Positions 495-28,013 of a DNA stretch of 28,013 nt are shown here, piece after piece. Each line of letters opens with the position of its first letter. Position 1 is the first letter of the stretch. The notes beneath the pieces are model-generated. The model saw nothing but the letters and a program-made list of their open reading frames with translations, had not been told where the DNA came from and did no database searches. Origin of the DNA: a virus (Duplodnaviria; Caudoviricetes); IMG/VR virus record IMGVR_UViG_3300013738_000005, positions 1 through 28,013 of that record. One strand, given 5' to 3'. The position numbers were made by a program, and so were the translations under genes.

Positions 495-537
495 TGAAGC
501 GCGCCGCAATAAATCCCTCCCCTGAAGCGCGATAAAT
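495..537. repeat. Putative transposable-phage end: terminal TG plus repeated transposase-binding-like motifs
   Basis: TGAAGCGCG at 495 and 523; CGCAATAAAT (505-514) and CGCGATAAAT (528-537) 23 bp apart; lies between the last phage gene and the host gene. The Mu R end also begins TGAAGCG. Confidence 0.6.
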
Positions 538-550
538 GGTCTCCGCGCGA

Positions 551-589
551 GCTTACAGCAGCCAAAAGCGAATTGCGGCTACTGTAAGC
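551..589 (-). terminator. 13-bp stem-loop just downstream of dcm (possible terminator or transcript 3' hairpin)
   Basis: GCTTACAGCAGCC-N13-GGCTACTGTAAGC; pairs fully on the minus transcript with one G-U; no clear U-tract follows. Confidence 0.4.
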
Positions 590-593
590 CCCC

Positions 594-1445
594 TTACATC
601 GCAGTCATCAAATGCCGGCCGATCCATTCTGCGATTTGCGGGACGACGGCGTTTCCGGCAGCCTGAGCCTCTGCAAAGTTGGCCGCATCCAGTCCTTTGC
701 AAAGCCCATCACGCTCAAGCGTTCGGGCCCGCTCAACCATCGCACGCCGGCCGTTTTGGGCAAACACGAGGCTTGAACCGCTGACCGGGATCTGTCCGGG
801 TGCCCGGCCAGCACAAAGGGTAGGATAAGCCCATCGCCCAAGGTCAATCTCGGCTTGTGCCGCTGGCGTCTGGCCAGGAACGTGGACCACTGGTCCGGCG
901 TCAGCCAGCAGCTCGAATGGGGGATGTTGTCCCAGACCAGCGACCATGAAAACCCTGCGGCGCTTCGTGGGGATTCCGAAATATGAAGCATCAAGCACCC
1001 TCCAGATTCCCACATACCCGCATTCGGCAAGGGTTGCGATGACAGTCTGGAAGTCCTGGCCATCGCCGCAAGACAGGAGCCCCGTGACATTCTCAAGCAC
1101 CACCCACTGGGGCCGTAGCTCCGTGAGGATGCGGGCGACCTCGTAGAACAGGCCGCTGCGCTCCCCCGCGAGGCCGCGCTGGCGGCCCATGACGCTGAGG
1201 TCCTGGCAGGGGAAGCCGCCGACGATGACGTCGACGGGCCGCAGGTTGTGGGCCCCGCATTCGCGGACGTCTTCGTATTGCTCCGCGTTCGGGAAGCGGT
1301 CGGCAAGGACCGCGCGGCAGACGGGGTTGATCTCGACCTGCCAGGCGGTGCGGAAGCCGGCGCGCTCGAAGCCAATGTCGAATCCGCCGATGCCGGCAAA
1401 GAGACTGCCGATGGAGGGGTGGTTCTGGTCACCATACATTTGCAT
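594..1445 (-). CDS. dcm: DNA (cytosine-5)-methyltransferase
   Basis: Motif I SLFAGIGG, motif IV GGFPCQD, motif VI ENV, motif VIII-like PTKRRRVF, motif X GNAVVP. Confidence 0.93.
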   Translation of the reverse strand: MQMYGDQNHPSIGSLFAGIGGFDIGFERAGFRTAWQVEINPVCRAVLADRFPNAEQYEDVRECGAHNLRPVDVIVGGFPCQDLSVMGRQRGLAGERSGLFYEVARILTELRPQWVVLENVTGLLSCGDGQDFQTVIATLAECGYVGIWRVLDASYFGIPTKRRRVFMVAGLGQHPPFELLADAGPVVHVPGQTPAAQAEIDLGRWAYPTLCAGRAPGQIPVSGSSLVFAQNGRRAMVERARTLERDGLCKGLDAANFAEAQAAGNAVVPQIAEWIGRHLMTAM

Positions 1446-1449
1446 CCTG

Positions 1450-1496
1450 GTTGTCAGGCGCTCGACGGCGTGCTGATGGGGGACTCCGGGCCCTCA
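1450..1496 (-). repeat. Degenerate copy of the com 3' region (second com remnant or regulatory element) upstream of dcm
   Basis: Ungapped 34/47 nt identity to 2403-2449 by manual alignment; translates LRARSPPSARRRAP versus Com LRAERPKPAGHRAS. Confidence 0.55.
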
Positions 1497-1530
1497 ATCG
1501 CACGGCGGCCGGATTGCCACCGCTGGATTG

Positions 1531-2321
1531 CTAGAACAGACCGACCGGCTCCCGCAAGCGGACCCAACTGTAGATGATCACTTCCTTGCGCGGGGCGGAC
1601 TTGCCGCCGCCGGCCACGGTGTAGTTGATATCGACTGTTTCCATGGCAAAGCTGCCGAAGCAGCGCCGGATGTCGGGATGGTCGTTCAGGCTGACGATCG
1701 CCTTGCCTTTGAGCCTGGCCAATCTGCTGGCCATGTCCTCGTACTGCTCGAATCCGAAGTCAACGCCATAGCCCTCGGTCTGCCAGTACGGCGGGTCCAT
1801 GTAAAAGAGGGTATGGGGCCGGTCGTAGCGGTCCAGGCAGTTTTGCCAGGTCAGGTTTTCGATGTAGGCGTTGGCCAGGCGCAGATGGGCTGCACTCAGG
1901 TTCTCCTCGATGCGCAACAGATTGACCGGCGGCGCAGTCGTGGCCGTGCCGTAGGTCTGGCCATCCACTCGGCCGCCGAACGCGTTGTGCTGCAGTAGAA
2001 GAAGCGCGCAGCGCGCTGGATGTCGGTCAGCGTCTGGGTGGGCGTGTCCTGCAGCCACTTGAAGACCTGGCGGCTGGACAGCGCCCACTTGAACTGGCGC
2101 ACAAACTCCTCCAGATGATGCTGGACAACGCGGTACAGGTTGACCAGATCTCCGTTGATGTCATTGAACACCTCGACCTCGGCAGGCGGACGCAGGAAGA
2201 ACAGCGCTGCACCGCCGGCGAACGGCTCGACATAGCAGGAATGCGCAGGAAAGCGCGGGAGCAGCGCATCGGCCAGGCGGCGCTTGCCACCGATCCACGG
2301 GATGATCGGTCGGGCAATCAT
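1531..2321 (-). pseudogene. dam: DNA adenine methyltransferase (D12/Dam family), split by a 1-bp deletion near 1995
   Basis: N-half PWIGGKRRLA...YVEPFAGG...RAARFFY in one frame; C-half LQHNAFGG...FYMDPPY in another; TAC CTG reads TACTG. Confidence 0.9.
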
Positions 2322-2357
2322 TGCAGACCGCCCTTGTGTTGCCAGCCTGCGCGCGAG

Positions 2358-2549
2358 TTAGCCGCGGCCGAATTCTCTTGAGGTTGTACTGACACTCTCT
2401 TCGTTGGAAGAGGCTCGATGGCCTGCTGGTTTGGGGCGCTCGGCCCTCAGATCATTGATTACCCGGCAGCGCGGACATTTGATGGTCAGGCGCAGATATT
2501 CGCCCACGCCCAGCTTCCGGTTGCAGTTGCCACAGCGGATTTCACGCAT
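2358..2549 (-). CDS. com: Mu Com-family zinc-ribbon translational regulator
   Basis: IRCGNCNRKL...IKCPRC (two CxxC pairs) directly upstream of a DNA-modification gene, as in Mu com-mom. Confidence 0.85.
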   Translation of the reverse strand: MREIRCGNCNRKLGVGEYLRLTIKCPRCRVINDLRAERPKPAGHRASSNEESVSTTSREFGRG

Positions 2550-2715: not shown

Positions 2716-3081
2716 TCACGCCTTGCCATAGTTTCCACGCCCGAACAGCCGTACGGCCCAGTACATCACGCTTCTGGTAAAGCGCGGCACCCCAAGCACC
2801 GCCATCGCTTCAAGGAATACGCCATCCGCGTACTCCCGCGTGACTTCGGCATTCTCGTAGAGGTAGTCATGGATGATGGCGGCCTTGGCCCATCGTCCAT
2901 GCGGCGGGAAAATGGCCCACAGCACTCGTGGCACACTGGCCAGATCCGTCATCGTTCCGGCTGGCACACGAATGACCGCTTCGCTGGGATAGTCACCCAC
3001 GTGGTATTCGAAAGGCGACAGCAGCTCCCAGCGATATTGATCCAGCATGCGCAGTTCGGCGGGCGTCGTGAATGTGGACAT
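2716..3081 (-). CDS. DUF1353 family phage protein
   Basis: Start MSTFTTP; motifs VPAGTMTDLASVPR, AAIIHDYLY, ADGVFLEAM, MYWAVRLFG. Confidence 0.8.
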   Translation of the reverse strand: MSTFTTPAELRMLDQYRWELLSPFEYHVGDYPSEAVIRVPAGTMTDLASVPRVLWAIFPPHGRWAKAAIIHDYLYENAEVTREYADGVFLEAMAVLGVPRFTRSVMYWAVRLFGRGNYGKA

Positions 3082-3097
3082 CGCCGCTACGTCTGCA

Positions 3098-3721
3098 CTA
3101 TGCCGGCAATTGCGCGATGGCCTGTTCGGCTGCCGAGCGCTGCGCATCCAATGCCGCTGCGATATCCGCCTCGGTTGAGGCGGCGCGTACCGCCGTGCGG
3201 GCAATGTCACGCAGCCGTTCCGCAATGCCAACCACCGTTGCATAGGCTGCGGCGTTTGCCAGTACCAGGTTGGTCCAGTCCAGCCTCGACGTTATCGTCT
3301 CCATCCCTGCACTGGCCAGGAACGCCTGGCCAGCGGCACTTACGGGGATCTCGCCGACGATGGCATTGGCGACTTCAAGCTTGAGCGACCACGTGTCCTT
3401 CTCGGCCTGCGTCGGGTTGCCAACCAGACGTTGCAGTGCGTCGGCGTGAAACTGGTCGATGGCCTGTAGTGCGTGTGCCCGGGCAGCATCCAGTAGCGAC
3501 GCTTGCCTGGCGGGATCGAGCGTCCAGGCTTCGCCGTCCCAGGCGAGTGCCGGGTTGAACGGCAAGGGCTCGCCGCCTTCGGCAACGAATATCTGGAATT
3601 CCTTCCACGTCTCGTTGTATGGATCGACGGGAATGTTCTCGCCACGACAGTAGACGCCAGGCATCTGGATGCCCTGCACGGTGGGCATGGTCATGTAGGG
3701 ATTGGTGTTCATGTCAGTCAT
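3098..3721 (-). CDS. Tail fibre assembly/chaperone-like protein
   Basis: Coupled (ATGA overlap) to the tail fibre gene; IPVDPYNETWKEF motif typical of fibre-associated proteins. Confidence 0.6.
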   Translation of the reverse strand: MTDMNTNPYMTMPTVQGIQMPGVYCRGENIPVDPYNETWKEFQIFVAEGGEPLPFNPALAWDGEAWTLDPARQASLLDAARAHALQAIDQFHADALQRLVGNPTQAEKDTWSLKLEVANAIVGEIPVSAAGQAFLASAGMETITSRLDWTNLVLANAAAYATVVGIAERLRDIARTAVRAASTEADIAAALDAQRSAAEQAIAQLPA

Positions 3722-5085
3722 GCGATACGGTTTGCATAGAACGCAAAGTTGCCCCGGTGGTCTGCGTAGTTCGTGAGCAGCCCCGCTGAATTGGTGTTGC
3801 CATTAAAGGAAGCACTGCATCTAATCGTTGCGCTTGGCGATGACACACGTAGCAGGAACGGTGGCCAATTGTAGGAATGCGGCGCGTTGTAAGGCTGATT
3901 GGTGAAGCCACTATGGCCGCCGCCAGCGACAAACTCCGTCCTGATATGGAAGTAGTATGAGTCGCCACCAGGCGTCACTCCCAAGTGGCAGTAATAGGGA
4001 GTGACCAGATAGACGCCACGCACCACATTGATGTTTGGGCTATAGAGCGTCTGCGCAGTGCCTGCGTTCAGTGTTGTGTAGAAGTCATGGCGACCGAGAT
4101 CGATGTTGGCCGCGCCTGTTCCACCTACTAGCCAGGTTGTGTCGCTGTACTTCACCAGCGTGACTTCCGTTCCGCTTGCTACCCCGAACACCTTCGCGGT
4201 ATTACTCGCGTCAACCGCACTCATGTATCGATCTTCGGTCTGCCGTTGAACGAGTATCAGCGGATGACCAGAGAGGTTCTGAATCCTCATGCTGGCGCCG
4301 TTCGGCAACTCGGACATCACAGGCGGCGTCCAGACCTGAGTACTTTCGCTGGCGCCAGCAACAATGACTCGCCCGATGTCGTCGGACGTGAGCACTACGC
4401 CAGACACAGCCGAATACCAGGCCACGCCGTTGAAACTGCCCAGCGCCTGCCGCATGGCCTCCGTGGTCGCCAGCCGGGTGCTGCTGTCGAAGCGCTCGGG
4501 CGTCGGCGCAGCCGGCGCACCCGTAAAGCCGGGAGATGCGAGCGGCGCGTAATGTTCCGCGCAGAACTTCTGGTAGTCATGCAGCGAGGCGTTCTGCCCC
4601 TCGGTGGCCGCCGCTACCTTGCCATCCACATACTGCCGGGTTGCCAGGACAACAGCCGGGTCAACTTTCAGAGTGACGGCGCTTGCGTTCGTCACCTCAA
4701 GAACCATGCGGATGTAAAGCTGCTTATTGGAGCCGCCCGCCATGAGCGGCTTGTAGCTTTCGGGGTACTTGCCCACGGCGATGACGTCACCATCGGCGTC
4801 GATGGCGGCAACCTCGCGGACATACCATCCACCGGCATCATCCGGGATCACCAGTTCGGCAACGACCCAGTTCGGGTTGTCCGGAACGGGCGTCAGATCA
4901 TTGATCGGGCCGCGCCAAACTTCGTGGCACAGCGCGCGCTGCTCAGGGTCGGGTTCGCAATAGGCCCCGTCGCGGCCGTCGCCAACGGCCATGGCCACCA
5001 GTTCAAGCGATGCGCGGTTTGAGATCGCCCGCGCAACTTTCGCGCGGCCAACCTCGGTCAGAATCGTGTAAAACTCATTTGCCAT
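3718..5085 (-). CDS. Tail fibre protein (P2 gpH-like N-terminus, variable C-terminal receptor-binding region)
   Basis: FYTILTEVG...MAVGDG...GGWYVRE...PESYKP...VDPAVVLATRQYVD, then APLASPGFTGAPAAPTP. Confidence 0.92.
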   Translation of the reverse strand: MANEFYTILTEVGRAKVARAISNRASLELVAMAVGDGRDGAYCEPDPEQRALCHEVWRGPINDLTPVPDNPNWVVAELVIPDDAGGWYVREVAAIDADGDVIAVGKYPESYKPLMAGGSNKQLYIRMVLEVTNASAVTLKVDPAVVLATRQYVDGKVAAATEGQNASLHDYQKFCAEHYAPLASPGFTGAPAAPTPERFDSSTRLATTEAMRQALGSFNGVAWYSAVSGVVLTSDDIGRVIVAGASESTQVWTPPVMSELPNGASMRIQNLSGHPLILVQRQTEDRYMSAVDASNTAKVFGVASGTEVTLVKYSDTTWLVGGTGAANIDLGRHDFYTTLNAGTAQTLYSPNINVVRGVYLVTPYYCHLGVTPGGDSYYFHIRTEFVAGGGHSGFTNQPYNAPHSYNWPPFLLRVSSPSATIRCSASFNGNTNSAGLLTNYADHRGNFAFYANRIA

Positions 5086-5097: not shown

Positions 5098-5868
5098 TCA
5101 TGCAGTGCGCGGATACACGGAAACGGTCTCGACGCTCCAGTGGCCCGCGCCTACGCCTGGGACCGGGCTGGCCTGTTCAAGCCCGGCAACGTGATACGGA
5201 AACACCGATACGGTCTCGATGCTCCAGTGACCCGCGGCTATGCCTGGCACCGGGCTGGCCTGTTCGAGCCCGGCAACGTGGTACGGATACACAGTGATGA
5301 CTTCACCGGCCAGCAGCGCCGCTGCAACTACCGGGACCGGCGAGCGCGCGGTAAGCGTCAGCGACAGTCCGTCCAGGCGCGAGCGCTTGTTCTTGTATTG
5401 CAGGATCAGTGCTTCCAGCCGCTGGTATTCGATCTGGCTGAGACCACGGCCCGACACGTCGACGTCGACCTTGAAGCGATAGGGCTGGCCACCGTAGTCG
5501 AACCACTCGGACACAACCCCCTGCAGGTTCAGCGTCACCAGAACCTGCTCGATCGCCCACGGCGTGCCCTTGTAGCGATGCAGTTCGATCGCGCGCCGAA
5601 TCAGGTCTCGCCGTTCGCGCTCAGTCTGCGCAAACTCCCAGCCTTCCAGGCCCATGACGTGGAATTGGCCGGCCAGATGCGGCAGCACGTTGGCCGGAAC
5701 CATGTCGACCAGGTACACCAGCAAGGCCGACAGGTCGATCGCGCCAAACCGTTCATCAACCAGCTCGGCCAGAAGACGAAACCGCTCATCGGCGGCAAGA
5801 ACCGGCGTTAATGGAGTTAATGGCGTCAATGGTGTCTGCGGGCCGGACTGCGCGTGCGCATCACTCAT
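5098..5868 (-). CDS. Baseplate/tail protein I (P2 gpI-like)
   Basis: LPHLAGQFHV...RRAIELHRYKGTPWAI...EWFDYGGQPYRF; sits between gpJ and the fibre. Confidence 0.9.
   Translation of the reverse strand: MSDAHAQSGPQTPLTPLTPLTPVLAADERFRLLAELVDERFGAIDLSALLVYLVDMVPANVLPHLAGQFHVMGLEGWEFAQTERERRDLIRRAIELHRYKGTPWAIEQVLVTLNLQGVVSEWFDYGGQPYRFKVDVDVSGRGLSQIEYQRLEALILQYKNKRSRLDGLSLTLTARSPVPVVAAALLAGEVITVYPYHVAGLEQASPVPGIAAGHWSIETVSVFPYHVAGLEQASPVPGVGAGHWSVETVSVYPRTA
5110..5292. repeat. 87-bp (29-aa) in-frame tandem duplication at the C-terminus of gpI
   Basis: VYPYHVAGLEQASPVPGIAAGHWSIETVS / VFPYHVAGLEQASPVPGVGAGHWSVETVS / VYP. Confidence 0.95.
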
Positions 5869-6979
5869 CGTGAATCCCCAGCACCTTCAACTCGATGCCG
5901 TCGCAGGCGGCCCACTCGTGCCGCGCCAGCACCCGGTCCGCAAAGGCTTCGTCGAGCACCACGTCGTACACGCCTGGCACATGCAAGGCAGCGTTCAATT
6001 GCCCCCGCACCAGATCGCGGCCAAGCCTGGCGCGCCGCTCCCGCGCATAGCGCTGCGCGGCAGCCAGCGCGTTGGCCAGCACGCTGGCCTCATCGAACCC
6101 GCGCAGCAGCATCAGTCCAGCAGAGATGCGATAGCGCACCGCATGCGGGGCTCTCGCGCGGAACTTGTCCGTGAGCGGGCGGCGCTTGCGGTGGCTGACC
6201 TGGGCCTCGACCAGCGCCAGCAGCTCGTCGCTGGGTACGCCGCCGGCCGTGAGCGGATAAGCCTCGACGTGGCCATCGGGCAAACCGTCCTCCGGGCCCA
6301 GCACCGCCACGTCGATGATGTCCTGGTGAACCGCGCGCACACGCACCTCGTACGCTTCTCCGGGACCGGCCACGCTGTAGCCCTCTGGGGCCAGCCGGAT
6401 ACGCTCCCGCAGCGGCTCGTCTTCCTCTTCCTCGGCGCCGCCGGCCGATGGCGTAACGTTAATGACGCTGACGGGCGTGTCCAGCGGTTCAAGAAGCTGG
6501 CTGATCCTCTCTGGTGCGAAGCCATTGCCGATGGCGCCCGGGGTTTCGCAGTACGCAATGACGTCGATCGATGTCTCGCCCGCAGGCAGTGTCGCGTCGG
6601 CCTCGGTGGCAAAGATCGCCGCGCCGTCATCGCATTCGACGCGCGTCTCCGCCGGAATCGGCATGGCCCTGGCCTGTGCCGATTCGACGGCAAAGCGCAG
6701 CGTGGTTCGCGCTGGCTGCGCCGGCAGGCGCGTGACACCTACAAGTTCGCCCAGGTAGTCCAGAACGGGCTTCTGTGCAAATGCCACCAGGTTCTGTTTC
6801 GCGGCGGCCTGAACGCCTGCGCGCACCAGCGTTTCGCGATAGGCGATCAGGTCGACGAACAGGCGCTCGACCTGGGCCGGATACAGCGTCTTGCCCGAGC
6901 GCTGCTCGTAGCGCGCGATGATCTCGGCGGTAATGGCGTCCGGGTCGCGGTCAATAAAATGCGGCTCTGGCAGACTCAT
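5861..6979 (-). CDS. Baseplate J/gp47 family protein
   Basis: LYPAQVERLF...LDYLGELVGV...LRERIRLAPEGYSVAGP...RPLTD. Confidence 0.93.
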   Translation of the reverse strand: MSLPEPHFIDRDPDAITAEIIARYEQRSGKTLYPAQVERLFVDLIAYRETLVRAGVQAAAKQNLVAFAQKPVLDYLGELVGVTRLPAQPARTTLRFAVESAQARAMPIPAETRVECDDGAAIFATEADATLPAGETSIDVIAYCETPGAIGNGFAPERISQLLEPLDTPVSVINVTPSAGGAEEEEDEPLRERIRLAPEGYSVAGPGEAYEVRVRAVHQDIIDVAVLGPEDGLPDGHVEAYPLTAGGVPSDELLALVEAQVSHRKRRPLTDKFRARAPHAVRYRISAGLMLLRGFDEASVLANALAAAQRYARERRARLGRDLVRGQLNAALHVPGVYDVVLDEAFADRVLARHEWAACDGIELKVLGIHDE

Positions 6980-7368
6980 GATGCGGCTCCGGTGGTGGTT
7001 GGGCGTTCGAAGACCACTTCAGTCAACTGCGGCACGCCATTGGCCACGTGCCACAGCACGCGCACGGCGATGTGCTCGGCGTCGATGCCGATATTGACCT
7101 TGCGAAGATTTATGCGGGGCTCCCAGCGGCGAATGGCCTCAACGGCCTCGCGCACCAGATAGGGCGTGACGCGGTTGACGGGCCAGTCCAGATACTGGAA
7201 CCCCCGCCAGCCGAACTCCGGACGGTGCCGGTCGGTGCCGTGGGGCGTGCCCAGAATGATGCGGATGGATTGATCGATATCCTGCAGGGCTTCGACGACG
7301 TCGCCCGCCACACCCAGGCGTGGCTGCCAGTGCATCGTGCGGATATCGGAGAGCGGGCGGAAGTTCAT
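6976..7368 (-). CDS. Baseplate wedge protein GPW/gp25 family
   Basis: DIDQSIRIILGTPHG...RPEFG...AIRRWEPRI. Confidence 0.92.
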   Translation of the reverse strand: MNFRPLSDIRTMHWQPRLGVAGDVVEALQDIDQSIRIILGTPHGTDRHRPEFGWRGFQYLDWPVNRVTPYLVREAVEAIRRWEPRINLRKVNIGIDAEHIAVRVLWHVANGVPQLTEVVFERPTTTGAAS

Positions 7369-7374
7369 GTCCCG

Positions 7375-7416
7375 ATGATCGGGCCGCGCGGCTCTCCTGG
7401 CTTTTAACGGGCTTTA
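7375..7416 (-). promoter_or_regulatory. Putative activator-dependent late promoter (baseplate-fibre operon)
   Basis: TAAAGCCCGTTAAAAG-N20-GATCAT; -10 hexamer only 6 nt before the gpW ATG. Confidence 0.7.
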
Positions 7417-7433
7417 ACGCTGAATGGCACCGT

Positions 7434-8075
7434 TCAATGACTATGGTGGTTGGAGTTGCCGCCGCCATCCATCACGGTGCCGCCCGCATCGATGTCGCCG
7501 TCGACGCGGACGTTGCCCTTGACGGAGATGTTCCCCCGGATCGACGCGGTATTGCCATCGCCGCCGTCGCTACTGCCGCGTATGTCCATGCCACCCGCGA
7601 CGATCAGCGTCTTGCGCACGGTCGCGTTGCCGGTGATGTCGATGTCCGGGGCATCCAGCGTTATCGTGCTCCCGGCCTTCACGTGCGCCGTGTCGGCCGC
7701 GAACACTTCCACCGGGCCCGAGCAATGCAGGCAGAACCGGCTTGTCTTGCGATCAAGGCTCACCACCGTTCCGTCGGAAAAGCGCACGTATTCGGTATCG
7801 GCATCGGTGATGGGTGGTGGCTCGGCGCTCGAGTAGATTGCCCCCAGGTAGACGCCGTCCACCCCATTCGCCGCCAGCATCACAGCCACGTGGCCGTTCA
7901 GGTCCGGCAGGCTGCGGTGCTTGTTGTCATGCGTATTGCGCTGGGGCACATGCAGCCAGTGCGTCTGCAATCCGTCGCGGTCATCCAGCCGCACGCGAAT
8001 CCGGCAGGTGGCGGCGTCCACCGCAGAGACCGTGCCGAACATTAGCCCGGCCTGATTGTGTTCATCGACCAGCAA
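7434..8075 (-). CDS. Baseplate assembly protein V (central spike)
   Basis: FGTVSAVD...RVRLDDRDGLQTHWL...FSDGTVV; C-terminal NSNHHSH metal-binding tip; TTG start uncertain. Confidence 0.92.
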   Translation of the reverse strand: MLVDEHNQAGLMFGTVSAVDAATCRIRVRLDDRDGLQTHWLHVPQRNTHDNKHRSLPDLNGHVAVMLAANGVDGVYLGAIYSSAEPPPITDADTEYVRFSDGTVVSLDRKTSRFCLHCSGPVEVFAADTAHVKAGSTITLDAPDIDITGNATVRKTLIVAGGMDIRGSSDGGDGNTASIRGNISVKGNVRVDGDIDAGGTVMDGGGNSNHHSH

Positions 8076-8076
8076 T

Positions 8077-17127: not shown

Positions 17128-17169
17128 ACTCTGACGCGATTCGGGGCGGCCGGCTTTTAATCGACTTTA
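17128..17169 (-). promoter_or_regulatory. Putative activator-dependent late promoter (former head operon, now driving gp37-sheath-tube)
   Basis: TAAAGTCGATTAAAAG-N20-CAGAGT. Confidence 0.7.
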
Positions 17170-17390: not shown

Positions 17391-17474
17391 GAGATCGTCA
17401 TCCTGAAACCCATACGCGCGCTTCCAGTACGCGCTGATCGGGCATCCCCTTGCCGCCAGCGCTTCCTCAAGGGC
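17391..17474 (-). pseudogene. Fused relics resembling small terminase (gp27/DUF3486) and portal (gp29/DUF935)
   Basis: One frame reads ALEEALAARGCPIS|AYWKRAYGFQDDDL; the halves resemble recalled motifs of B3-type TerS and portal, in the expected order. Confidence 0.5.
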
Positions 17475-18942: not shown

Positions 18943-18943
18943 G

Positions 18944-19285: not shown

Positions 19286-19313
19286 TTGACCCTCCAGACG
19301 TGAACATGCCGCC

Positions 19314-19355
19314 ATCATCGGCGGCATGGGAGGGAGGGTCTTTTAATTGGGTTTA
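19314..19355 (-). promoter_or_regulatory. Putative activator-dependent late promoter (lysis operon)
   Basis: TAAACCCAATTAAAAG-N20-GATGAT. Confidence 0.7.
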
Positions 19356-20160: not shown

Positions 20161-20276
20161 GCCCTTTCTCCACGCTATTTATTCGAGGGGGGCATTTTGC
20201 ATTTCAAGTGTGGAGTCAGCGTTGATGCCGCACAAGTCGAGCAAAGTCGAGAAAAACCGGCCCTATCGGCATTGCT

Positions 20277-20489
20277 TCACGTATTAACAGGAGGCTCGCC
20301 CTCGTGCCACGCGGGAGCGGCGTCGCCATTATTCCGAACGCACTTGAAGCGCACCTTGTCGGCGGGGCGAATCTCGCTGCCGACCGAGTATGTGGCGCCG
20401 GCATAGGTACACGTTCGCCGGCGGTCCGGCCAAGTCAGATATTCGATAGCGGCTATCAGCAGCGCAAGCCCTGCAAGCGCTACCGCCAC
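20277..20489 (-). CDS. Small exported/membrane protein, DUF1496-like Cys domain
   Basis: Hydrophobic N-terminus then CTYAGATYSVGSEI...FKCV; GTG start uncertain. Confidence 0.55.
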   Translation of the reverse strand: MAVALAGLALLIAAIEYLTWPDRRRTCTYAGATYSVGSEIRPADKVRFKCVRNNGDAAPAWHEGEPPVNT

Positions 20490-20511: not shown

Positions 20512-20976
20512 TTACTGCTTTTTTTTAACGGGCTGCTTCGGCGTGGCTGCTTTCACCTTGAAGGTGTGGCTGCCGCCGGTGACATGCTGCGCGCCGACGG
20601 GGCCGTGAATGACCGGCGAAGAGGGGACGGTCGCCGTGGCTTTCGCTGTGGATTTCGTTGTGGATTTCGCCGGTGCGGCGCCGCCCAGCATGAAGGCCAG
20701 CATCCGTTTGCGCGTTTCAGCGTCCAGTCCTCGATACCCCTCAAGAAGTACGGTTTCTTCCGGCGTCAGCGATGCGGCGGAGCGAATTCCCGTAATGACG
20801 TATTGAACGTCAACGCCGAATCTGGCCACCGCCGCCAGATAGTCCATATCCGGTGCACGGCTACCGCTTTCGTAGTTGATCTGCGTGGTTTTTCCTACTC
20901 CTGCGATAGAAGCAAACCGCGTCTGGCTCATGCCCAAACGCGTGCGCTCTTCCTTCAGTCGCACAGAAGGGTTCAT
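20512..20976 (-). CDS. XRE-family HTH prophage repressor (no S24 peptidase domain)
   Basis: RLKEERTRLGMSQTRFASIAGVGKTTQINYESGSRAPD...GVDVQYVITG; divergent from ner. Confidence 0.92.
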   Translation of the reverse strand: MNPSVRLKEERTRLGMSQTRFASIAGVGKTTQINYESGSRAPDMDYLAAVARFGVDVQYVITGIRSAASLTPEETVLLEGYRGLDAETRKRMLAFMLGGAAPAKSTTKSTAKATATVPSSPVIHGPVGAQHVTGGSHTFKVKAATPKQPVKKKQ

Positions 20977-21024
20977 ATTTGTGAACTATTTGTTGTTGAC
21001 AGGTTCACAAACGTGAACCACAAT
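20971..21024 (+). promoter_or_regulatory. Early promoter with two palindromic operators
   Basis: TTGACA(20996)-17 bp-CACAAT(21019); GTTCAT-N4-GTGAAC (20971-20986, over the repressor ATG) and GTTCAC-N4-GTGAAC (21003-21018, in the spacer). Confidence 0.8.
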
Positions 21025-21104
21025 TTCACTCACAAACAGCAGCGAATTCACCCGCAAAGAGACTTCGCAACTGCTCTCCCGAAAACTTCACACGGAGGTC
21101 AACC

Positions 21105-21296
21105 GTGACCATCACGCGCTTCAAAGCCCTGCTCAGAAGCCAGGGTAAAACGATCCGCCAATGGGCTGAAGAGAACGACTTTCCGGTTGGCGCCGTCTAC
21201 CGCGCGCTTAACGGGGTGGACAAGGGCCACCACGGTCGAGCCCACGAAATTCTTGCCAAGGCCGGCATCAAGCAGCCTTTGCAGCTTGCCGCCTGA
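21105..21296 (+). CDS. Ner/Cro-like DNA-binding protein (BcepMu gp16 type)
   Basis: GKTIRQWAEENDF...VYRALNG...GRAHEI; RBS GGAGG; first early gene. Confidence 0.85.
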   Translation: MTITRFKALLRSQGKTIRQWAEENDFPVGAVYRALNGVDKGHHGRAHEILAKAGIKQPLQLAA

Positions 21297-21483: not shown

Positions 21484-21798
21484 ATGAATGGCCCGGAATC
21501 ACCGAAAACCGCTCAATCCGCCGGCAAGGTGCTGGACGTGCTGACCGTGCTGCTGGGGCACTTCGCCCACGGCCTCACGCCTACCGAGTTGGCGAAGGCC
21601 ACGAGCCTGGAGCCGAGTTCCATTACCCGTTACGTGGCCACGCTGGAAGACAAGGGTTTTGCCGAGCGCATCCCCGAGACCGGGCGCATTCGTCCGTCCA
21701 TCCGGCTTGCCCAGCACGCGGTCGGCATCATGCGCAGCCTTGACGCGGCCCGCCAGCGTATTGACGCGGTCAGCGCCCGTTTGACGACTCAGCTTTAA
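21484..21798 (+). CDS. IclR-type winged-HTH protein
   Basis: KVLDVLTVLLGHFAHGLTPTELAKATSLEPSSITRYVATLEDKGFAER. Confidence 0.85.
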   Translation: MNGPESPKTAQSAGKVLDVLTVLLGHFAHGLTPTELAKATSLEPSSITRYVATLEDKGFAERIPETGRIRPSIRLAQHAVGIMRSLDAARQRIDAVSARLTTQL

Positions 21799-21807
21799 GG
21801 AGCAGAC

Positions 21808-22755
21808 ATGGCACGGAAGCCTTCATCCCCCAACAACACCGCCGTGATCGTGACGGATGCCGATACACCTGGCCTGCCGGCCATGCGCGATGCGGCCAAT
21901 CAGCTTGCCGTCATGCACGTCGAACAGGACGCCACCGTGCGCGCGGTAGCTGCCCAGCTTGGCTATCAACTGCCGGCCGACTGCACGGACCCGGACCTGA
22001 TCCAGCGCGATATCGCCGCCAATATGCGCCGCAGCGTGGAGGCGTGTCTGGAGGTCGGGCGCGGGCTGCGGGTTTTGAAGGAGGCGTGTGAGCACGGGCG
22101 CTTCATGGTTCGGCTAGACGTGCTTGGCATCGAGGCCAGTGTTGCCCGTCGCTTCATGGAATCGGCAACCAAGTTCGCGAAACGTGCGACGTCGCACGTT
22201 TTGAACGCAGCGGGTAACCAGTCGAAGCTGTTCGAAATGCTGATCCTGGACGACGAACAGATCGAGGAACTGGAGCTGACCGGCCAGACTGGCGAACTGA
22301 AGCTGGATGACATAGCCACGATGAGCGTCAAGGAACTGCGCGCGGCGCTTCGTGAATCGCGGAACGTTGCCGAGGCGCGTTCGCGTCTGCTGGAGGACAA
22401 GGACACCAAGATCAACGAGCTTGACGAGGCGCTGTCCAAGGCCAGGAAGCGTGTGAAGGCGGTGCCGCCCGCTGAAGTAGGCGATGAGATTCGCAAGGAA
22501 GCCGCGGCGCTGGCCGCCCAGGCCGAGGTTGTCATTCGCGCGACGGGCGCGGGCTTGGCGGCCTTGAACGAGCACACCGAGGCGCACGGTATTGACCACG
22601 GCGCCTTTGCCGCCGGCCTGATCTGTCAGCTTGAGCGGACCATTCGCCAACTGCGCGACGAGTTCGACATCCAGGCCATGCCGGATGCCGACGACACGCC
22701 GGACTGGATTCGCAACGATCCACCGGCCATCGACACCACCGCCGCCGAGGTGTAA
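21808..22755 (+). CDS. DUF3102-like conserved Mu-like phage early protein
   Basis: LEVGRGLRVLKEACEHGRF...ARRFM...LDDIATMSVKELRAALRE; precedes the transposase. Confidence 0.78.
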   Translation: MARKPSSPNNTAVIVTDADTPGLPAMRDAANQLAVMHVEQDATVRAVAAQLGYQLPADCTDPDLIQRDIAANMRRSVEACLEVGRGLRVLKEACEHGRFMVRLDVLGIEASVARRFMESATKFAKRATSHVLNAAGNQSKLFEMLILDDEQIEELELTGQTGELKLDDIATMSVKELRAALRESRNVAEARSRLLEDKDTKINELDEALSKARKRVKAVPPAEVGDEIRKEAAALAAQAEVVIRATGAGLAALNEHTEAHGIDHGAFAAGLICQLERTIRQLRDEFDIQAMPDADDTPDWIRNDPPAIDTTAAEV

Positions 22756-22758
22756 TCC

Positions 22759-24564
22759 ATGAGCGCCGTCCTGACAGAAATGCTGGTTGCGGTGGCACAG
22801 GCTGCCCGGAAAGCCGGGCACGGCGGCAAGGGAGCCATCTACGCATCCGCGTGCCGAGAGCTTGGGCTTTCCTACGCCACGCTGATGCGCAAAATCAAGG
22901 CAGTGAGTGTGACGGACCATCGCAAGCGCCGCACCGATGCAGGCAGCACCGCGCTTTCTCGTGACGATGCGAGGATGATTTCAGCGGTCCTCATGGAGTC
23001 CACGCGCAAGAACGGCAAGCGTCTTTACTCTGTCTCCGATGCTGTCACGGCGCTGCGGGCTGACGGCTTGATCCGCGCCGAGTATCTGGACTTGGACACG
23101 GGCGAACTGCGGCCGCTATCGGACAGCACGATTCATCGCGCGCTGCGCGTGCACGGCCTGCACCCGGACCAGTTGGCGGCGCCAGCGCCGGTCACGGAAC
23201 TGGCCAGTCTGCACCCCAATCATGTCTGGCAGATCGACGCCAGCCTGTGCGTGCTCTATTACCTGAAGCCTTCAGCCGATGCGCGGGCCAACGGGTTGCG
23301 CGTGATGGACCAGGACACGTTCTACAAGAACAAGCCCAGGAACCTTGCGCGCATTGCAGCGGACCGGGTGTGGAGCTACGAGATCACCGACCACACCAGC
23401 GGCTGGATCTACGTCGAGTATGTGATGGGCGCGGAGTCCGGCGAGAACCTGTGTTCGGTGCTGATCAACGCGATGCAGGAGCGCGGCGATGCGGACCTGC
23501 TGCACGGCGTGCCGCGCATCCTGATGCTCGATGCCGGATCGGCCAACACCGCAGCGATGACCCGCAACCTGTGCCATTCGCTCGGCATCGCGCTGATGCC
23601 GCACGCTGTGGGCAATGCCCGTGCGACTGGCCAGGTGGAGAACGCCCGCAACATCATCGAGCGCAAGTTCGAATCGGCCCTCAGGTTTCAGCCGGTGAAC
23701 AGCCTGGAGGAACTGAACGCGCAAGCCCGCAAGTGGCGCATGCACTTCTGCGCATCGGCCGATCATCGCCGCCACGGCATGACGCGCAGCGCGGCCTGGA
23801 TGGCGATTCGTGCCGATCAGCTGATCAAGGCTCCGCCTGTCGACGTATGCCGGGAGCTGGCTGTAGCGGCCCCGGAAAGCCGCCGGGTGGCACCGAAGCT
23901 GCGTGTTTCCTTCCGCGGCTGCGAGTACGACGTGTCGACCGTGCCAGGTGTCATGGTCGGCGAGAAGGTCATGGTCACCCGCAACCCGTGGCGCGACGAT
24001 GCCGCCCAGGTGGTGCTCGTGGACGAACACGGCTACGAGGTTTTCCACGTGGTCCACGCGGTGCGGAAGAACGAATTCGGTTTCAGTGCCGAAGCGGCAA
24101 CCATCGGCGAAAGCTACAAGCGTCATGCCAACACGGCGGCGCAGACCGCGCTGAAGGAAATCGAACAGCTGGTGACGGGGACCGATTCCGTGTCGGCGGC
24201 CGTTGCGGCCCGCAAGGCAAAGGCGCTGCCATTCGGCGGCCGGTTCGATCCATTCAAGCACATCGACGACGCCACGTTGCCGACGTACCTGCCGCGACGC
24301 GGCACTGCCCACTCGCTTGTTGCGCCGACGGTTGAACTGCCGCCGCTGTCGCACGTCGAGGCATCGAAGCAACTCAAGGCGCGGGTGGAGGCCGGCGGCG
24401 GTACATGGTCGGCCGAGCGGTTTCGCTGGTTGCAACAGCGCTACCCCGCTGGCGTCCCCCAGGAGCAGCTCGACGCGATCGCCGCCGAGCTTGTCGGCCC
24501 ACGTTCGAACTCGGGTCATCAAACGCCGCTGCAGGTCGTGCGTGCGGCGGCAGGAGGTCAATGA
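22759..24564 (+). CDS. DDE transposase (MuA equivalent), intact
   Basis: RKRRTDAG; catalytic triad WQIDAS / LMLDAGSAN / GQVEN; 601 aa uninterrupted. Confidence 0.93.
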   Translation: MSAVLTEMLVAVAQAARKAGHGGKGAIYASACRELGLSYATLMRKIKAVSVTDHRKRRTDAGSTALSRDDARMISAVLMESTRKNGKRLYSVSDAVTALRADGLIRAEYLDLDTGELRPLSDSTIHRALRVHGLHPDQLAAPAPVTELASLHPNHVWQIDASLCVLYYLKPSADARANGLRVMDQDTFYKNKPRNLARIAADRVWSYEITDHTSGWIYVEYVMGAESGENLCSVLINAMQERGDADLLHGVPRILMLDAGSANTAAMTRNLCHSLGIALMPHAVGNARATGQVENARNIIERKFESALRFQPVNSLEELNAQARKWRMHFCASADHRRHGMTRSAAWMAIRADQLIKAPPVDVCRELAVAAPESRRVAPKLRVSFRGCEYDVSTVPGVMVGEKVMVTRNPWRDDAAQVVLVDEHGYEVFHVVHAVRKNEFGFSAEAATIGESYKRHANTAAQTALKEIEQLVTGTDSVSAAVAARKAKALPFGGRFDPFKHIDDATLPTYLPRRGTAHSLVAPTVELPPLSHVEASKQLKARVEAGGGTWSAERFRWLQQRYPAGVPQEQLDAIAAELVGPRSNSGHQTPLQVVRAAAGGQ

Positions 24565-25763
24565 TGTTGAAGCTGAAGAACGTGCTGCAACAGGTGGGCC
24601 GCAAGCAGTCGGAGTTGGCCAAATTCCTTGGTCTGAGCCAGGCCGCCGTTGCGCAGATCATCAACCACGGTGAATGGCCGAAGAGTCTCGACGAACTCGA
24701 TCTGCGGGAGCGGGTTGTCGATTTCCTCGGGCTGCACGGTGCGCAGGAGGAGGTCTTGGCCTGCGTCTTTGAACAGGTGGGCGAGCCGGGTGCGGACTGC
24801 GCGTCGAACCTCCCATCGAACCCCACTCCGGAAACCAAACAGGACAAACAGGAGGACTCCATGCTACTGCGAAAGCAGACGCTTCTCCCCAATACACGCA
24901 AGCATTTCGGGATGTTCCGCGATCCGTTTGCCGATGACGCGATCCAGTCGCACGAGGACATGTACTTGAGCCCGGATATCCGTTACGTGCGTGAGGCCAT
25001 GCTGCAGACCGCAAAGCACGGCGGGCTGCTGGCGGTGGTGGCCGAGTCCGGCGCGGGCAAGACCACGCTGGTGCGCGATCTGGAAGACCGGATCGTGCGC
25101 GAAACGCAGCCCATCCTGCTGATCAAGCCTTACGTGCTGGCAATGGAAGACAACGACGCGAAGGGCAAGACGCTGAAGGCCACGCACATCGCCGAGGCCA
25201 TCATGGCTGCGGTGGCGCCGCTGGAGAAGCCCAAGAGCAGCCCGGAGGCGCGCTTCGCGCAACTGCATCGCGCGCTCAAGGAGAGCCACGCGGCTGGCTA
25301 CCGGCATTGTCTGCTGATCGACGAGGCCCACGCGTTGCCGGTTCCGACGATCAAGCACCTGAAACGGTTCTTCGAGCTTGAGATGGGCTTCAAGAAGCTG
25401 CTGTCGATCATCCTGATTGGCCAGCCCGAACTGCGGGTCAAGCTGTCCGAGCGCAACCAGGATGTGCGCGAGGTTGTGCAGCGCTGCGAAATGGTTGAAC
25501 TGGCGCCGCTCGACGGTGGCCTGGACGAGTATCTCAAATTCAAGCTTGAGCGCCTGGGCAAGCCGGTTGCCGATGTGATCGACGCCGGCGGTATCGACGC
25601 CCTGCGTGTGCGGCTGACCGCGGCCAGCACGCGCCGCGATCGGGCCGAGACGGTGTCGCTGCTGTATCCGCTGGCCGTGGGCAACCTGTTGAAGGCAGCG
25701 ATGAACCTGGCGGCAGAGCTTGGCGTGCCGACCGTGACCGCTGACGTCGTGAGGGGGGTGTGA
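24561..25763 (+). CDS. MuB-like/ExeA-type AAA+ transposition ATPase with N-terminal HTH
   Basis: Walker A ESGAGKTT, Walker B LLIDEAH, ILIGQPEL; ATGA-coupled to the transposase. Confidence 0.92.
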   Translation: MMLKLKNVLQQVGRKQSELAKFLGLSQAAVAQIINHGEWPKSLDELDLRERVVDFLGLHGAQEEVLACVFEQVGEPGADCASNLPSNPTPETKQDKQEDSMLLRKQTLLPNTRKHFGMFRDPFADDAIQSHEDMYLSPDIRYVREAMLQTAKHGGLLAVVAESGAGKTTLVRDLEDRIVRETQPILLIKPYVLAMEDNDAKGKTLKATHIAEAIMAAVAPLEKPKSSPEARFAQLHRALKESHAAGYRHCLLIDEAHALPVPTIKHLKRFFELEMGFKKLLSIILIGQPELRVKLSERNQDVREVVQRCEMVELAPLDGGLDEYLKFKLERLGKPVADVIDAGGIDALRVRLTAASTRRDRAETVSLLYPLAVGNLLKAAMNLAAELGVPTVTADVVRGV

Positions 25764-25764: not shown

Positions 25765-26037
25765 ATGCCAGTGATCATCTCCGGGCCGCCTGTGGCCGAT
25801 CCGCGTGCGTTGTCCCATGACGACCTGGTGCGTCATGCCGAATCGTTGCAGCGCTATGGCTGGAAGGTGTTCGATGCTGTGGGCAAGCTGCTTGAGCTGA
25901 ACGAGATCAGCCGGGAGACGCTAGTGCGGATCATCGACGCCCACGAGGCGGGCAATGTCGAGGAACTGGTCATGCTCCTGCAGGCGTGCGCGGACGGCAG
26001 ACGTGAAGCCGGTGCGGCCCGGCAATCGGTCCACTAG
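25765..26037 (+). CDS. Hypothetical phage early protein
   Basis: 90 aa, tightly packed after the ATPase with a G-rich RBS. Confidence 0.65.
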   Translation: MPVIISGPPVADPRALSHDDLVRHAESLQRYGWKVFDAVGKLLELNEISRETLVRIIDAHEAGNVEELVMLLQACADGRREAGAARQSVH

Positions 26038-26053
26038 TTTGAGGGGGAGTGCG

Positions 26054-26329
26054 ATGCCAATGCCAACGTCCATGCTTGGACCCGCGGCCAGCGAAGTGCG
26101 ACAGAGCCTGGCTAGCGTTACGGCGGAATTCAAACGAATGATTCATGCGATCCGGCTGCGGCGCGAGCTGGCCGTCATGACGCGCGACGAGATCAGGGCG
26201 GCGGCCGAGATCGAGTGGCTGCGCGGTGAACTCGCCCGACATGAGGCAAACCTGCGTGGGCTTTCCAGGCTCTACACCCGACGACGCATCCGTCTCCTTG
26301 CGCAGCTTGAGCGCGTGGGCGGGCGGTAA
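26054..26329 (+). CDS. Hypothetical phage early protein
   Basis: RBS GAGGGGGAG before ATG 26054; 91 aa, helical, Arg-rich. Confidence 0.6.
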   Translation: MPMPTSMLGPAASEVRQSLASVTAEFKRMIHAIRLRRELAVMTRDEIRAAAEIEWLRGELARHEANLRGLSRLYTRRRIRLLAQLERVGGR

Positions 26330-26373
26330 CTCTTTTCCATAGGTTCAACATGATCAGCAAGGAATAACAAGCC

Positions 26374-26895
26374 ATGGCGACCAAACAGCGACTGAAGGCT
26401 GGCATCCGGCAATGGGTGGCGCAATCCGCCGATGAGGTGGCGGCAACCATCCGGCAGATCGGCGAAGAGAGCCGTGATATTGGGCGGCTGCAGGCCGACA
26501 TGAACGACGAGATCGCTGCCGTGACGGCGCGCTACCAGGCGCTTATCGGCCCCCGGCAGGAACGCGTCCAGGTCATGCAGGAGGGTGTGTACACCTGGTG
26601 CGCTGCAAACCGGGACACTCTGACCAATGGCGGCAAGGTGAAGAGCTTCAATTTCATCACCGGGCAGGTGCAGTGGCGGCTGCGGCCGCCGAGCTGCTCG
26701 GTGCGTGGGGTTGAACCCGTTATCGAGACACTCAAGCGCCTGGGGCTGCAGCGCTTCGTGCGAGTGAAGGAAGAGATCAACAAAGAGGCCATCCTGAACG
26801 AGCCGGAGGCCGTCAAGGGCGTGCCGGGTGTGAAGGTGGTCACCGGCGTCGAGGATTTTGTTATCGAGCCGTTCGAGCAACAGGCGGCCGGGTAG
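26374..26895 (+). CDS. gam: Mu Gam family host-nuclease inhibitor (DNA end-binding)
   Basis: WCAANRDTLTNGGKVKS...TGQVQWRLRPPS...FVRVKEEINKEAIL...VEDFVIEPFE. Confidence 0.93.
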   Translation: MATKQRLKAGIRQWVAQSADEVAATIRQIGEESRDIGRLQADMNDEIAAVTARYQALIGPRQERVQVMQEGVYTWCAANRDTLTNGGKVKSFNFITGQVQWRLRPPSCSVRGVEPVIETLKRLGLQRFVRVKEEINKEAILNEPEAVKGVPGVKVVTGVEDFVIEPFEQQAAG

Positions 26896-26907
26896 CCGCT
26901 GCACTTC

Positions 26908-26969
26908 GCGAAACACTCGCCGCGGCGGGTGTCTGCCTGGCGTGGTGGCCTGGTACTGATGAGCAGCCG
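26908..26969 (+). ncRNA. Type II hammerhead ribozyme
   Basis: GC-GAAA(26910-13); stem III ACACUCGC/GCGGGUGU; GUC cleavage triplet (26931-33); stem I UGCCUGGC/GCCUGGUA with loop GUGGUG; CUGAUGA(26956-62)-GC. Confidence 0.85.
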
Positions 26970-26980
26970 GAGGGAAGGTA

Positions 26981-27637
26981 ATGACGGAAGGGCAGATGGC
27001 GTGCCGGAGAGGTAAGGTGGCCGGCGCGACTCCGGACGAACGCAAACGTCTGATTCAAGTTATCCATGTGGCGAAGCGGCAGTTGGCTCTGGCCGAGGAA
27101 GAGTATCGCGAAATCCTCTATCGGGCGGCTGGCAAGGAAAGCGCAGCCTTGATGACCAACGCCGAATTGCGCCGCGTTGTGGAGTACGTCAAGCGCTGCG
27201 GATTCAAGGTGCGGTCCAAGGGTCGGGGCCAACCGGCATCCGCTTCATTGTCCCGTACGCTGGCCCAGGATGCCGAGAGCCGAAAGATTCGGGCGCTCTG
27301 GCTGTTTCTGCATCGGCTGGGGGTTGTTACGAACCCGTCAGAGGCTGCCTTGGCCGCCTATGTGAAGCGCCTCACGGGCGTTGATGCACTGCAGTGGACG
27401 GACGGTGCCCAGGCCGACCGCCTGATCGAGAGCCTGAAGAAATGGGGCATGCGCTTCCTCCCTCGGGCTGTCGAAGATTTGGCGGCACAGGCGCGCGGGC
27501 TTCGGCTGGCTGACGACGAGCGCCATCGGCTGGATGCCGTTGTGTTCAAGGCACTTGATCGCCGGACCTTTGACCCCATGCGCGAAGCATGGGAGCACCT
27601 GGACGCCATCCTGCCGAAGGAGAATGCACATGGTTGA
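26981..27637 (+). CDS. gemA: Mu gp16/GemA family protein (DUF1018)
   Basis: LIQVIHVAKRQLAL.EEEYR...GKESA...KIRALW...AL.AYVKR.TGVDALQW...LIESLKKW. Confidence 0.9.
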   Translation: MTEGQMACRRGKVAGATPDERKRLIQVIHVAKRQLALAEEEYREILYRAAGKESAALMTNAELRRVVEYVKRCGFKVRSKGRGQPASASLSRTLAQDAESRKIRALWLFLHRLGVVTNPSEAALAAYVKRLTGVDALQWTDGAQADRLIESLKKWGMRFLPRAVEDLAAQARGLRLADDERHRLDAVVFKALDRRTFDPMREAWEHLDAILPKENAHG

Positions 27638-28013
27638 CCAGGGGGGCCGCGCCGCCAGCACCTTCAAGACCAAGGCACCAGAACTGCTGGCCGACCTGGC
27701 CGCTCACATTGCCGCCGCGCTTGTGGAACTGGCGGGCCTTGATCAGACGTCGGCAGAGGGGGTCGGGCGGGAAGTTGCCGATCGGATGGCGGCTCATTGG
27801 GGCGGGCAGAATGTCTACTTTCCGATGGGCCTGTCCGTGAAACTCTCGCAGCGCGATCAGGGGATCTACGACGAGTTCAACGGCACCAACCACAGCGATC
27901 TGGCCAGGAAGTATGGCGTCTCGCTGCAGTGGATCTACAAGATCATCAAGGCAGTCGGCCGGGTGGAATTGGCGCGGCGCCAACGTGACCTGTTTCCAGG
28001 CAATGAGCCGTAG
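27630..28013 (+). CDS. mor: Mor/C family transcription activator
   Basis: WGGQNVYFP...RDQGIYDEFNGTNHSDLARKYGVSLQWIYKII. Confidence 0.93.
   Translation: MVDQGGRAASTFKTKAPELLADLAAHIAAALVELAGLDQTSAEGVGREVADRMAAHWGGQNVYFPMGLSVKLSQRDQGIYDEFNGTNHSDLARKYGVSLQWIYKIIKAVGRVELARRQRDLFPGNEP

Follow-up and report, generated by a model that had tools for sequence, protein, structure and literature searches.

What is left of a transposable phage whose tail, lysis and transposition genes are all in place and whose head genes are gone? This question is raised by IMG/VR record IMGVR_UViG_3300013738_000005, whose entire genome is the 28,013-nucleotide (nt) stretch of DNA analyzed here and referred to as the window. 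From its sequence, we identify the window as a BcepMu-family prophage in a Cupriavidus chromosome. An earlier, sequence-only reading had offered three options for it, namely, a tailocin that amplifies itself by transposition, a satellite that supplies tails to a helper phage, and an early stage of domestication, and the last of these is the best supported. With a probability of about 0.58, we regard the element as partway through its domestication into an R-type tailocin. Headless elements of this family are probably phage-tail weapons caught midway through taming by their hosts.

RESULTS

Scars in the head-gene interval

Family searches against PHROG and Pfam, from which the gene labels were taken, together with tblastn recovered the BcepMu plan in the window: mor, gemA, gam, ATPase, transposase, gp10, gp12, ner and repressor are followed by the lysis cassette and gp25, and then by gp37, gp38, sheath, tube, chaperone, tape measure, baseplate and fibre (Table 1). 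In BcepMu, the interval between gp25 and gp37 holds gp26, TerS, TerL, portal, F, G, protease, major capsid, gp35 and gp36. The sequence-only reading had placed the head genes of BcepMu-type phages in exactly this interval, and all ten were indeed also found by tblastn in Ralstonia phage YO107_2. In the window, in contrast, none of the ten BcepMu genes had a match at E ≤ 0.01, and 465 nt lie between the stop of gp25 (17467) and the start of gp37 (17001), close to the ∼470 bp originally estimated.

We searched this gap with profiles built from 75 to 106 homologues per head gene, taking significance from 200 shuffles. Protein profiles detected an internal fragment of the portal gene and no significant remnant of the other nine of the ten head genes. 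DNA profiles recognized the G-protease intergenic region with the start of the protease gene and, beyond it, the 5' end of gp36 (17080-17038; DNA level only). None of the 200 shuffles scored as high as any of these three remnants, which follow each other across the gap in the order portal, G-protease region, gp36 5' end. A possible C-terminal remnant of G was unsupported by the DNA-level test. Judged from these matches, the gap is a mosaic of scars and not a clean join. The three ordered remnants imply at least three deletions, or four should the final 37 nt ahead of gp37 derive from gp36. All of the deletions are confined between gp26 and gp36, and the remaining 27 kb of other genes contains one frameshift.

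The deletions spared a motif that also precedes the holin and protease genes in BcepMu and YO107_2 and that presumably acts as a Mor-dependent late promoter. Variants of this motif are also found before the tail chaperone (14220-14235) and before the holin (∼19340-19356), both on the minus strand. Between the spared motif and gp37, the protease start opens a mini-open reading frame (mini-ORF) that ends at the gp37 start.

Independent losses of the head

Locus scans that started from gp37, gp25, transposase and sheath proteins yielded 130 distinct loci holding both gp25 and gp37, a nonrandom sample that includes near-copies and the window itself. Head content was all or none: 100 loci carry eight or nine of nine head genes, 30 carry none, and not a single one is partial, so the headless architecture is found well beyond the window. 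Among 401 enterobacterial genomes, 26 carry 32 BcepMu-type sheath matches, 20 of them with a full head, 11 headless and 1 partial; 63 of 67 distinct transposase-anchored viral loci with room past gp25 continue to terminase, and the other 4 are headless. In class-level surveys, none of 301 genomes gave a BcepMu-type sheath, and none of 131 gave an enterobacterial lysC.

One headless group, devoid of transposase, comprises Salmonella, Escherichia, Enterobacter and Phytobacter loci with the order mor-holin-SLT-gp25-gp37. Its Salmonella members are probably Def4, going by Salmonella Typhimurium protein names. Summer et al. (2004), on the BcepMu family, or Bobay et al. (2014), on domesticated prophages, may reportedly already have noted the Salmonella locus as headless. 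The name Def4 itself is taken from a table in PMC3591323. One Def4-type locus (L173) adjoins lysC/pgi. In another copy, from Salmonella (L168:6663-8201), part of the tape measure and baseplate genes is replaced by a gene for a 512-amino-acid (aa) membrane protein, presumably resembling an O-antigen glucosylation gene.

The transposase (A) is retained in headless elements of Hafnia/Obesumbacterium, of Lonsdalea and of two further genomes, G1171 and G1090, the last two with full-length A and ATPase (B). The element of Hafnia alvei/Obesumbacterium (L286/L388) carries A, a shortened B and mor. In a high-GC (65 to 68%) headless family (L319-L327, L330, L423 and L424), mor adjoins gp37, several baseplate-fibre modules stand in tandem, and no lysis genes were found nearby; this family is sister to the head-bearing prophages L315 and L317. 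Finally, a headless lysis-plus-tail cluster occupies one site in three enterobacterial genomes (L446, L447, L452 and L466-L468), after dinG and a type I secretion cluster, with glnH beyond (seen in L466 and L467) and neither mor nor A seen nearby. Carotovoricin and xenorhabdicin were ruled out by protein names as the identity of headless loci, and Kosakonicin and an E. coli ST131 locus were set aside, being described as P2-like in the literature. Separately, L074 and L019 are mosaic prophages in which related sheath genes are joined to unrelated head modules.

On a sheath tree of 45 rows, the headless label changes five times, of which at least four changes are forced, and a single headless clade is rejected (approximately unbiased [AU] test, P = 0.0001). 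Both sheath trees were quick ones; the 45-row tree does not contain G1171, G1090 or the glnH-site group, and its labels treat L328 as intact though partly deleted and L313 as headless though its upstream part is cut. The window groups with head-bearing phages (Shimodaira-Hasegawa-like approximate likelihood ratio test [SH-aLRT] support of 97 to 99) and not with the Def4-type loci. The headless end state has thus been reached at least four times and retained across genera. The promoter motif or a near variant precedes gp37 in the headless groups, the exception, judged by eye, being the high-GC family. The mini-ORF is also present in Lonsdalea and G1090, and not in Hafnia, G1171 or the Def4 type.

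Erosion of the terminator and the tape measure

The predicted model of gp37 (predicted local distance difference test [pLDDT] score, 82) matches the folds of 2GJV, the Mu terminator 9KHY and the pyocin R2 collar. In PMC11784142, 2GJV is listed among terminator hexamers. By these fold matches gp37 is a tail terminator, and the proposal that the loss stops precisely at this gene is upheld; a precedent is BceTMilo (PMC5411513).

We counted the columns that are at least 85% conserved in head-bearing relatives. gp37 of the window retains 26 of 34 such columns and the tape measure 89 of 111, compared to 532 of 572 in ten other tail genes (Fisher's test, P = 0.003 and P = 9 × 10^-5, respectively). 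Only 1 of 51 intact phages scores as low for gp37 and 2 of 54 for the tape measure, and the clade nearest to the window retains most of the conserved residues of both. A gp37 loop motif present in 49 of 51 head-bearing relatives is lost in the window, as is an N-terminal tape-measure motif present in 61 of 64. In phage T5, the tape-measure N terminus fills the tube up to the terminator (PMC11784142). The gp37 loop would face the head.

The most serious rival is an ordinary defective prophage, whose head was deleted by chance and whose remainder has yet to decay. We consider it unlikely, since several deletions are limited to the head interval with the motif spared, since the loss of conserved residues is concentrated in two genes whose frames are open, and since the same end state has arisen at least four times and is kept across genera. 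Nevertheless, several observations favor it or weigh against domestication. The element is a singleton carried by only one sequencing run; gp37 is present in none of 78 Cupriavidus genomes, and its nearest homologue is 62% identical. One methylase gene is frameshifted, and the early genes are still complete, as a recent loss predicts. Whole-gene relative-rate tests on 13 tail genes revealed no change (all P > 0.1), which recent loss fits equally well. Half of the eight gp37 changes are conservative. Erosion is not universal: Hafnia, Lonsdalea and G1090 retain the gp37 loop, and the high-GC family retains the tape-measure motif. Ordinary partial decay does occur, both in L328, L362 and L433, which have also lost gp25 and thus stand outside the 130 loci, and in Lonsdalea G1240, which lost the tail and most of A. 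Moreover, a literature search turned up no report of particles or of killing for a headless locus of the BcepMu type.

Transposase under selection at a fixed site

The window's own element being a singleton, the comparison of tail and transposase genes proposed by the sequence-only reading was made in Lonsdalea, where pairwise ratios of nonsynonymous to synonymous substitution rates (dN/dS; NG86 counts on pairs; dS of 0.08 to 0.36; no stops) were 0.08 to 0.11 for A, 0.06 to 0.12 for B and 0.05 to 0.10 for mor, and 0.025 for the sheath and 0.095 for J among the tail genes. Transposase and tail genes of the Lonsdalea element are therefore both under purifying selection.

Each of the six genomes of the genus Lonsdalea gave a single match, four of them full length. 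On the mor side, the element adjoins the same sulfate-transporter genes in all four comparisons with enough flank, and on the tail side it adjoins tRNA-Val/Lys and gltX wherever this is visible, so that the site is common across species, as expected of a domesticated element. A pattern search found no Mu-type end in the Lonsdalea element. ATPase B lacks its first 100 residues in the Lonsdalea and Hafnia elements; in the Hafnia reference copy A is frameshifted, most of the 15 cluster members having 582 to 586 aa. In Lonsdalea L426/L427 (G974), L428 and L459-L462, a recombinase gene lies beside the fibre genes, which are possibly invertible.

The elements of G1171 and G1090 are ∼89% alike, each with end-like repeats, and reside at different sites; the neighbors are type III secretion genes and ferritin for G1171, and qseB/kup and rbsD for G1090. 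Their deletion junctions differ, and L271, a prophage bearing terminase and portal, is as close in A (89.8% versus 89.2%); separate losses after separate insertions fit these data.

A mobile headless element, i.e., a composite transposon with a tailocin that copies itself to new sites without a capsid, is accordingly a doubtful explanation. The full-length A and B, the DDE residues and the right end in the window speak for it, as do the selection on the Lonsdalea transposase and the different sites and end-like repeats of G1171 and G1090. Against it stand the single matches and the common site in Lonsdalea, the failure of the pattern search to find a Mu-type end there, the truncated B of Lonsdalea and Hafnia, the different junctions of G1171 and G1090 with L271 equally close, and the assembled contig described below, which apparently crosses the right end of the window's element into one host flank. 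The notion of a transposable tailocin thus holds up in part: headlessness recurs together with a transposase, and that transposase is under purifying selection, but the copies are single at one common site, and the sole pair at different sites has different deletion junctions. Selection on the transposase of a headless element is observed; of the movement of such an element, we found no case. The transposition genes may persist either because mor lies behind them or because they are useful on induction.

That the element is a satellite supplying tails to the heads of a helper phage is very unlikely, even though a complete tail and a replication module are present. G, gp36 and both terminases are gone and the gp37 loop is lost, so that the tail probably lacks the adaptor, the completion protein and the conserved form of the terminator needed for head docking. 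The residues lost from gp37 and the tape measure, including the terminator loop and the tape-measure N terminus, are kept by head-bearing relatives, which argues against the lending of tails to a helper.

Ends, host and assembly

The element spans from 495 to the mor stop at 28013. The suspected terminus does survive: the sequence at 495 matches the right end of BcepMu, and the insertion site is empty in Cupriavidus sp. BIS7, whose 95% identity over positions 1 to 494 ends at 494. The left end, and with it any target duplication, lies beyond the window's reach. In BIS7 (L026:10510-10620), palindromic repeats resembling repetitive extragenic palindromic (REP) elements begin right after the empty site. 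The Lonsdalea analogue keeps one chromosomal site in the comparisons with enough flank.

A Logan contig (run X1; 27,793 nt; depth, 87.7) shows no difference from the window over 8500-13644 and 13710-28013, gap junction included; its depth is even, near 88, and it skips only one 65-nt repeat. Judged from its length, it extends ∼70 nt past 495 into the host flank, which would fit a single insertion site. Because X1, of which contigs were used, is possibly the window's source run, it counts as a second assembly rather than a second sample. An assembly collapse at 17.0 to 17.5 kb, conceivable for contigs of metagenome origin, is scarcely credible given an identical second assembly of even depth and several ordered remnants that a collapse would not produce. 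In a megablast search against phages two records matched, neither covering 80%, and a sheath-seeded metagenome scan returned nine loci, none close, with a best full-length match of 51%.

Relation to known elements

The window shares with BcepMu (NC_005882), phiE255 and YO107_2 the gene order, the inverted early operon ending in mor, the lysis cassette, the P2-like tail and the terminal repeat, and its rve-type transposase is 76 to 80% identical to those of the BcepMu family. The family hallmark is present, namely, an early operon that diverges from the repressor and encodes an rve-type transposase along with ATPase, GemA and Mor. Unlike the family, the window lacks gp26, terminases, portal, F, G, protease, capsid, gp35 and gp36, and it carries a Mu-type gam. 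The early genes and the lysis genes find their nearest counterparts in YO107_2 and BcepMu (identity of up to 85%); the tail belongs to another clade, the sheath being 61% identical to that of BcepMu and 74 to 76% identical to those of head-bearing viral contigs.

The Def4 type (Salmonella Typhimurium STM4196 region, PDB 2GJV, with its Escherichia, Enterobacter and Phytobacter relatives) resembles the window in that gp25 stands directly before gp37, the motif, mor, holin and SLT are kept, and gp37 and the tape measure are eroded. It differs in having no repressor, transposase or ATPase, no Rz match and a separate origin on the sheath tree. The Lonsdalea, Hafnia/Obesumbacterium, G1171 and G1090 elements identified in this analysis share with the window A, B, gp10, gp12, mor, lysis and tail genes and the lack of head genes. 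They likewise have separate origins and differ from the window in the shortened B and absent gam of Lonsdalea and Hafnia, in the gp26 kept by Lonsdalea and G1171, and in the fixed site of Lonsdalea.

Among proven tailocins, BceTMilo of Burkholderia cenocepacia has lost the head genes, DNA-modification genes and docking adaptor and kept its integrase, according to PMC5411513. As described there, its break, like that of the window, falls between tail completion and head genes, and a mobility gene is kept; it is P2/KL3 derived, has a tyrosine integrase rather than a replicative transposase and ATPase, and is of proven activity. The R-type syringacin of Pseudomonas syringae is also a headless contractile tail of Mu-related ancestry, with a Mu/SfV-type tail, without any replication genes and fixed between trpE and trpG (PMC4542187). 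The same paper gives replication genes as absent from pyocin R and syringacin. Two hallmarks of R-type tailocins are present in the window: the contractile tail is complete, terminator, tape measure, baseplate and fibre included, and a lysis cassette is present while head and packaging genes are not. Its A and B, however, are full length. Our literature search, which covered few subscription papers and no supplements, found no paper on headless BcepMu-type elements with a transposase and none testing Def4 as a tailocin.

Gene map

The features of the window are collected in Table 1. The tail, baseplate and lysis genes, the repressor and ner, gp12 and gp10, the transposase and ATPase, and gam, gemA and mor all have frames whose one stop is the terminal one; apart from gp12 and gp10, the sequence-only reading had listed these frames as uninterrupted. 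The DDE residues were likewise correctly described as intact: D160, D258 and E294 do not vary in either of two alignments (5 of 5 and 7 of 7 sequences) and, from the rve domain match, presumably form the catalytic triad. A search of gp25 against Pfam gave no DUF2730 match, so that gp25 is at most a candidate releasin, a protein described in PMC9239132; a gp25 profile search returned 590 matches, taken without genomic context, which contributed nothing further. The D12 adenine methylase gene is frameshifted while the neighboring C5 methylase and com genes stay open; BceTMilo likewise lost its DNA-modification genes. The opposite-strand insert between chaperone and tape measure contains a short tandem repeat (13645-13709).

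Table 1. Features of the 28,013-nt window and the evidence for each
Feature	Positions	Strand	Basis
Host flank, outside the element: GNAT acetyltransferase (1-468) and spacer	1..494	+	Pfam PF00583; 95% to Cupriavidus sp. BIS7
Right end (attR), two transposase-binding-type repeats	495..537	+	Matches BcepMu right end
C5 cytosine methyltransferase, frame open	594..1445	-	PF00145, phrog_363
D12-class adenine methyltransferase, frameshifted, two frames	1531..2321	-	phrog_56 split over two ORFs
Com-like zinc ribbon regulator	2358..2549	-	PF10122
DUF1353 protein and 207-aa ORF, probable fibre assembly chaperones	2716..3721	-	PF07087, phrog_1158; position suggests role of 207-aa ORF
Tail fibre, 455 aa; C-terminal part without close family	3718..5085	-	PF12571; Atlas leads all <0.9
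Baseplate module, P2-like I, J, W, V, D, X, U	5098..10339	-	Family and tblastn searches
Tape measure, 844 aa, open; N-terminal GxxIG motif lost	10339..12873	-	Pfam and alignments
Opposite-strand insert, two hydrophobic ORFs	12890..13752	+	0 Pfam matches
Tail assembly chaperone and short downstream extension ORF	13749..14253	-	PF10109, phrog_8286
Tail tube (174 aa) and contractile sheath (476 aa)	14308..16264	-	PF04985, PF04984, PF17482
gp38 and tail terminator gp37 (170 aa; conserved FP..P..Y loop lost)	16254..17001	-	PF09646; fold matches
33-codon fusion ORF, protease start and gp36 5' remnant; stop overlaps gp37 start	16998..17099	-	Sequence, profiles
Retained G-protease intergenic region and protease start, with presumed Mor-dependent late promoter motif (17169-17154)	17081..17326	-	nhmmer 40 bits, 0/200 shuffles
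Internal portal remnant (profile positions 369-396 of 496)	17379..17459	-	0/200 shuffles
Lysis cassette: holin, SLT endolysin, Rz, Rz1, gp25 membrane protein	17467..19327	-	PHROG, Pfam, sequence
Accessory membrane ORFs, repressor-holin interval	19384..20489	-	PHROG, sequence
Divergent repressor (20512-20976, -) and ner-like gene (21105-21296, +)	20512..21296		PF01381, phrog_925
gp12, gp10, transposase A (22759-24564), ATPase B (24561-25763)	21484..25763	+	76% to BcepMu gp9 and gp8
Two small ORFs, gam, gemA, mor (window ends at mor stop)	25765..28013	+	PF07352, PF06252, PF08765

DISCUSSION

The case for domestication into an R-type tailocin draws on the restriction of the deletions to the head interval, with the motif spared and the rest of the 27 kb nearly intact, on the concentration of residue loss in gp37 and the tape measure, and on the all-or-none head content with its at least four independent losses. 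It is further supported by the recurrence of the motif before gp37 and of the mini-ORF in other headless elements, by the purifying selection on Lonsdalea tail genes, and by BceTMilo as a proven tailocin that arose by a like loss.

Under this interpretation, a BcepMu-family transposable myophage would have inserted once in the Cupriavidus chromosome, and several deletions would later have removed the genes for head and packaging. Most likely the element now works as an inducible R-type tailocin or is being retained as one. The repressor would keep the early operon off. Upon induction, transcription would pass A and B and reach mor at the end of the operon, and Mor would switch on the candidate late promoters ahead of the holin and ahead of gp37. 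The fusion mini-ORF may hand ribosomes to gp37 by translational coupling, headless contractile tails would assemble and be capped by gp37, and lysis would free the tails, which might kill related cells bound by the fibre.

A bolder possibility, which we put forward tentatively, is that headless BcepMu-family elements are a recurring, undescribed class of self-amplifying tailocins. A and B would then be selected because replicative transposition, by which Mu-like phages replicate (PMC2920897), multiplies the tail genes before lysis; transposition may also serve late transcription and, in some hosts, carry the weapon to new sites. Within such a class, the window would stand early, the Lonsdalea and Hafnia elements in the middle and Salmonella Def4 at the stripped end. 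Amplification by replicative transposition in the induced cell is also compatible with domestication as set out above.

Taken alone, the window offers suggestive signs of selection, and its significance comes from the repeated, graded series to which it belongs. The route from phage to tailocin is usually inferred from finished products. Here, one family provides graded independent cases, with a fresh head loss and legible scars in the window, a transposase kept under selection at a fixed site in Lonsdalea, and early genes gone in the Def4 type. It thereby becomes possible to test in what order genes were lost and which parts (the late-promoter motif, gp25, gp37 and mor) escaped each time. A concrete hypothesis is also gained for Salmonella Def4, a common locus that tends to be catalogued as a defective prophage. 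The series further raises the puzzle of a transposase that is under purifying selection in an element that seemingly no longer moves.

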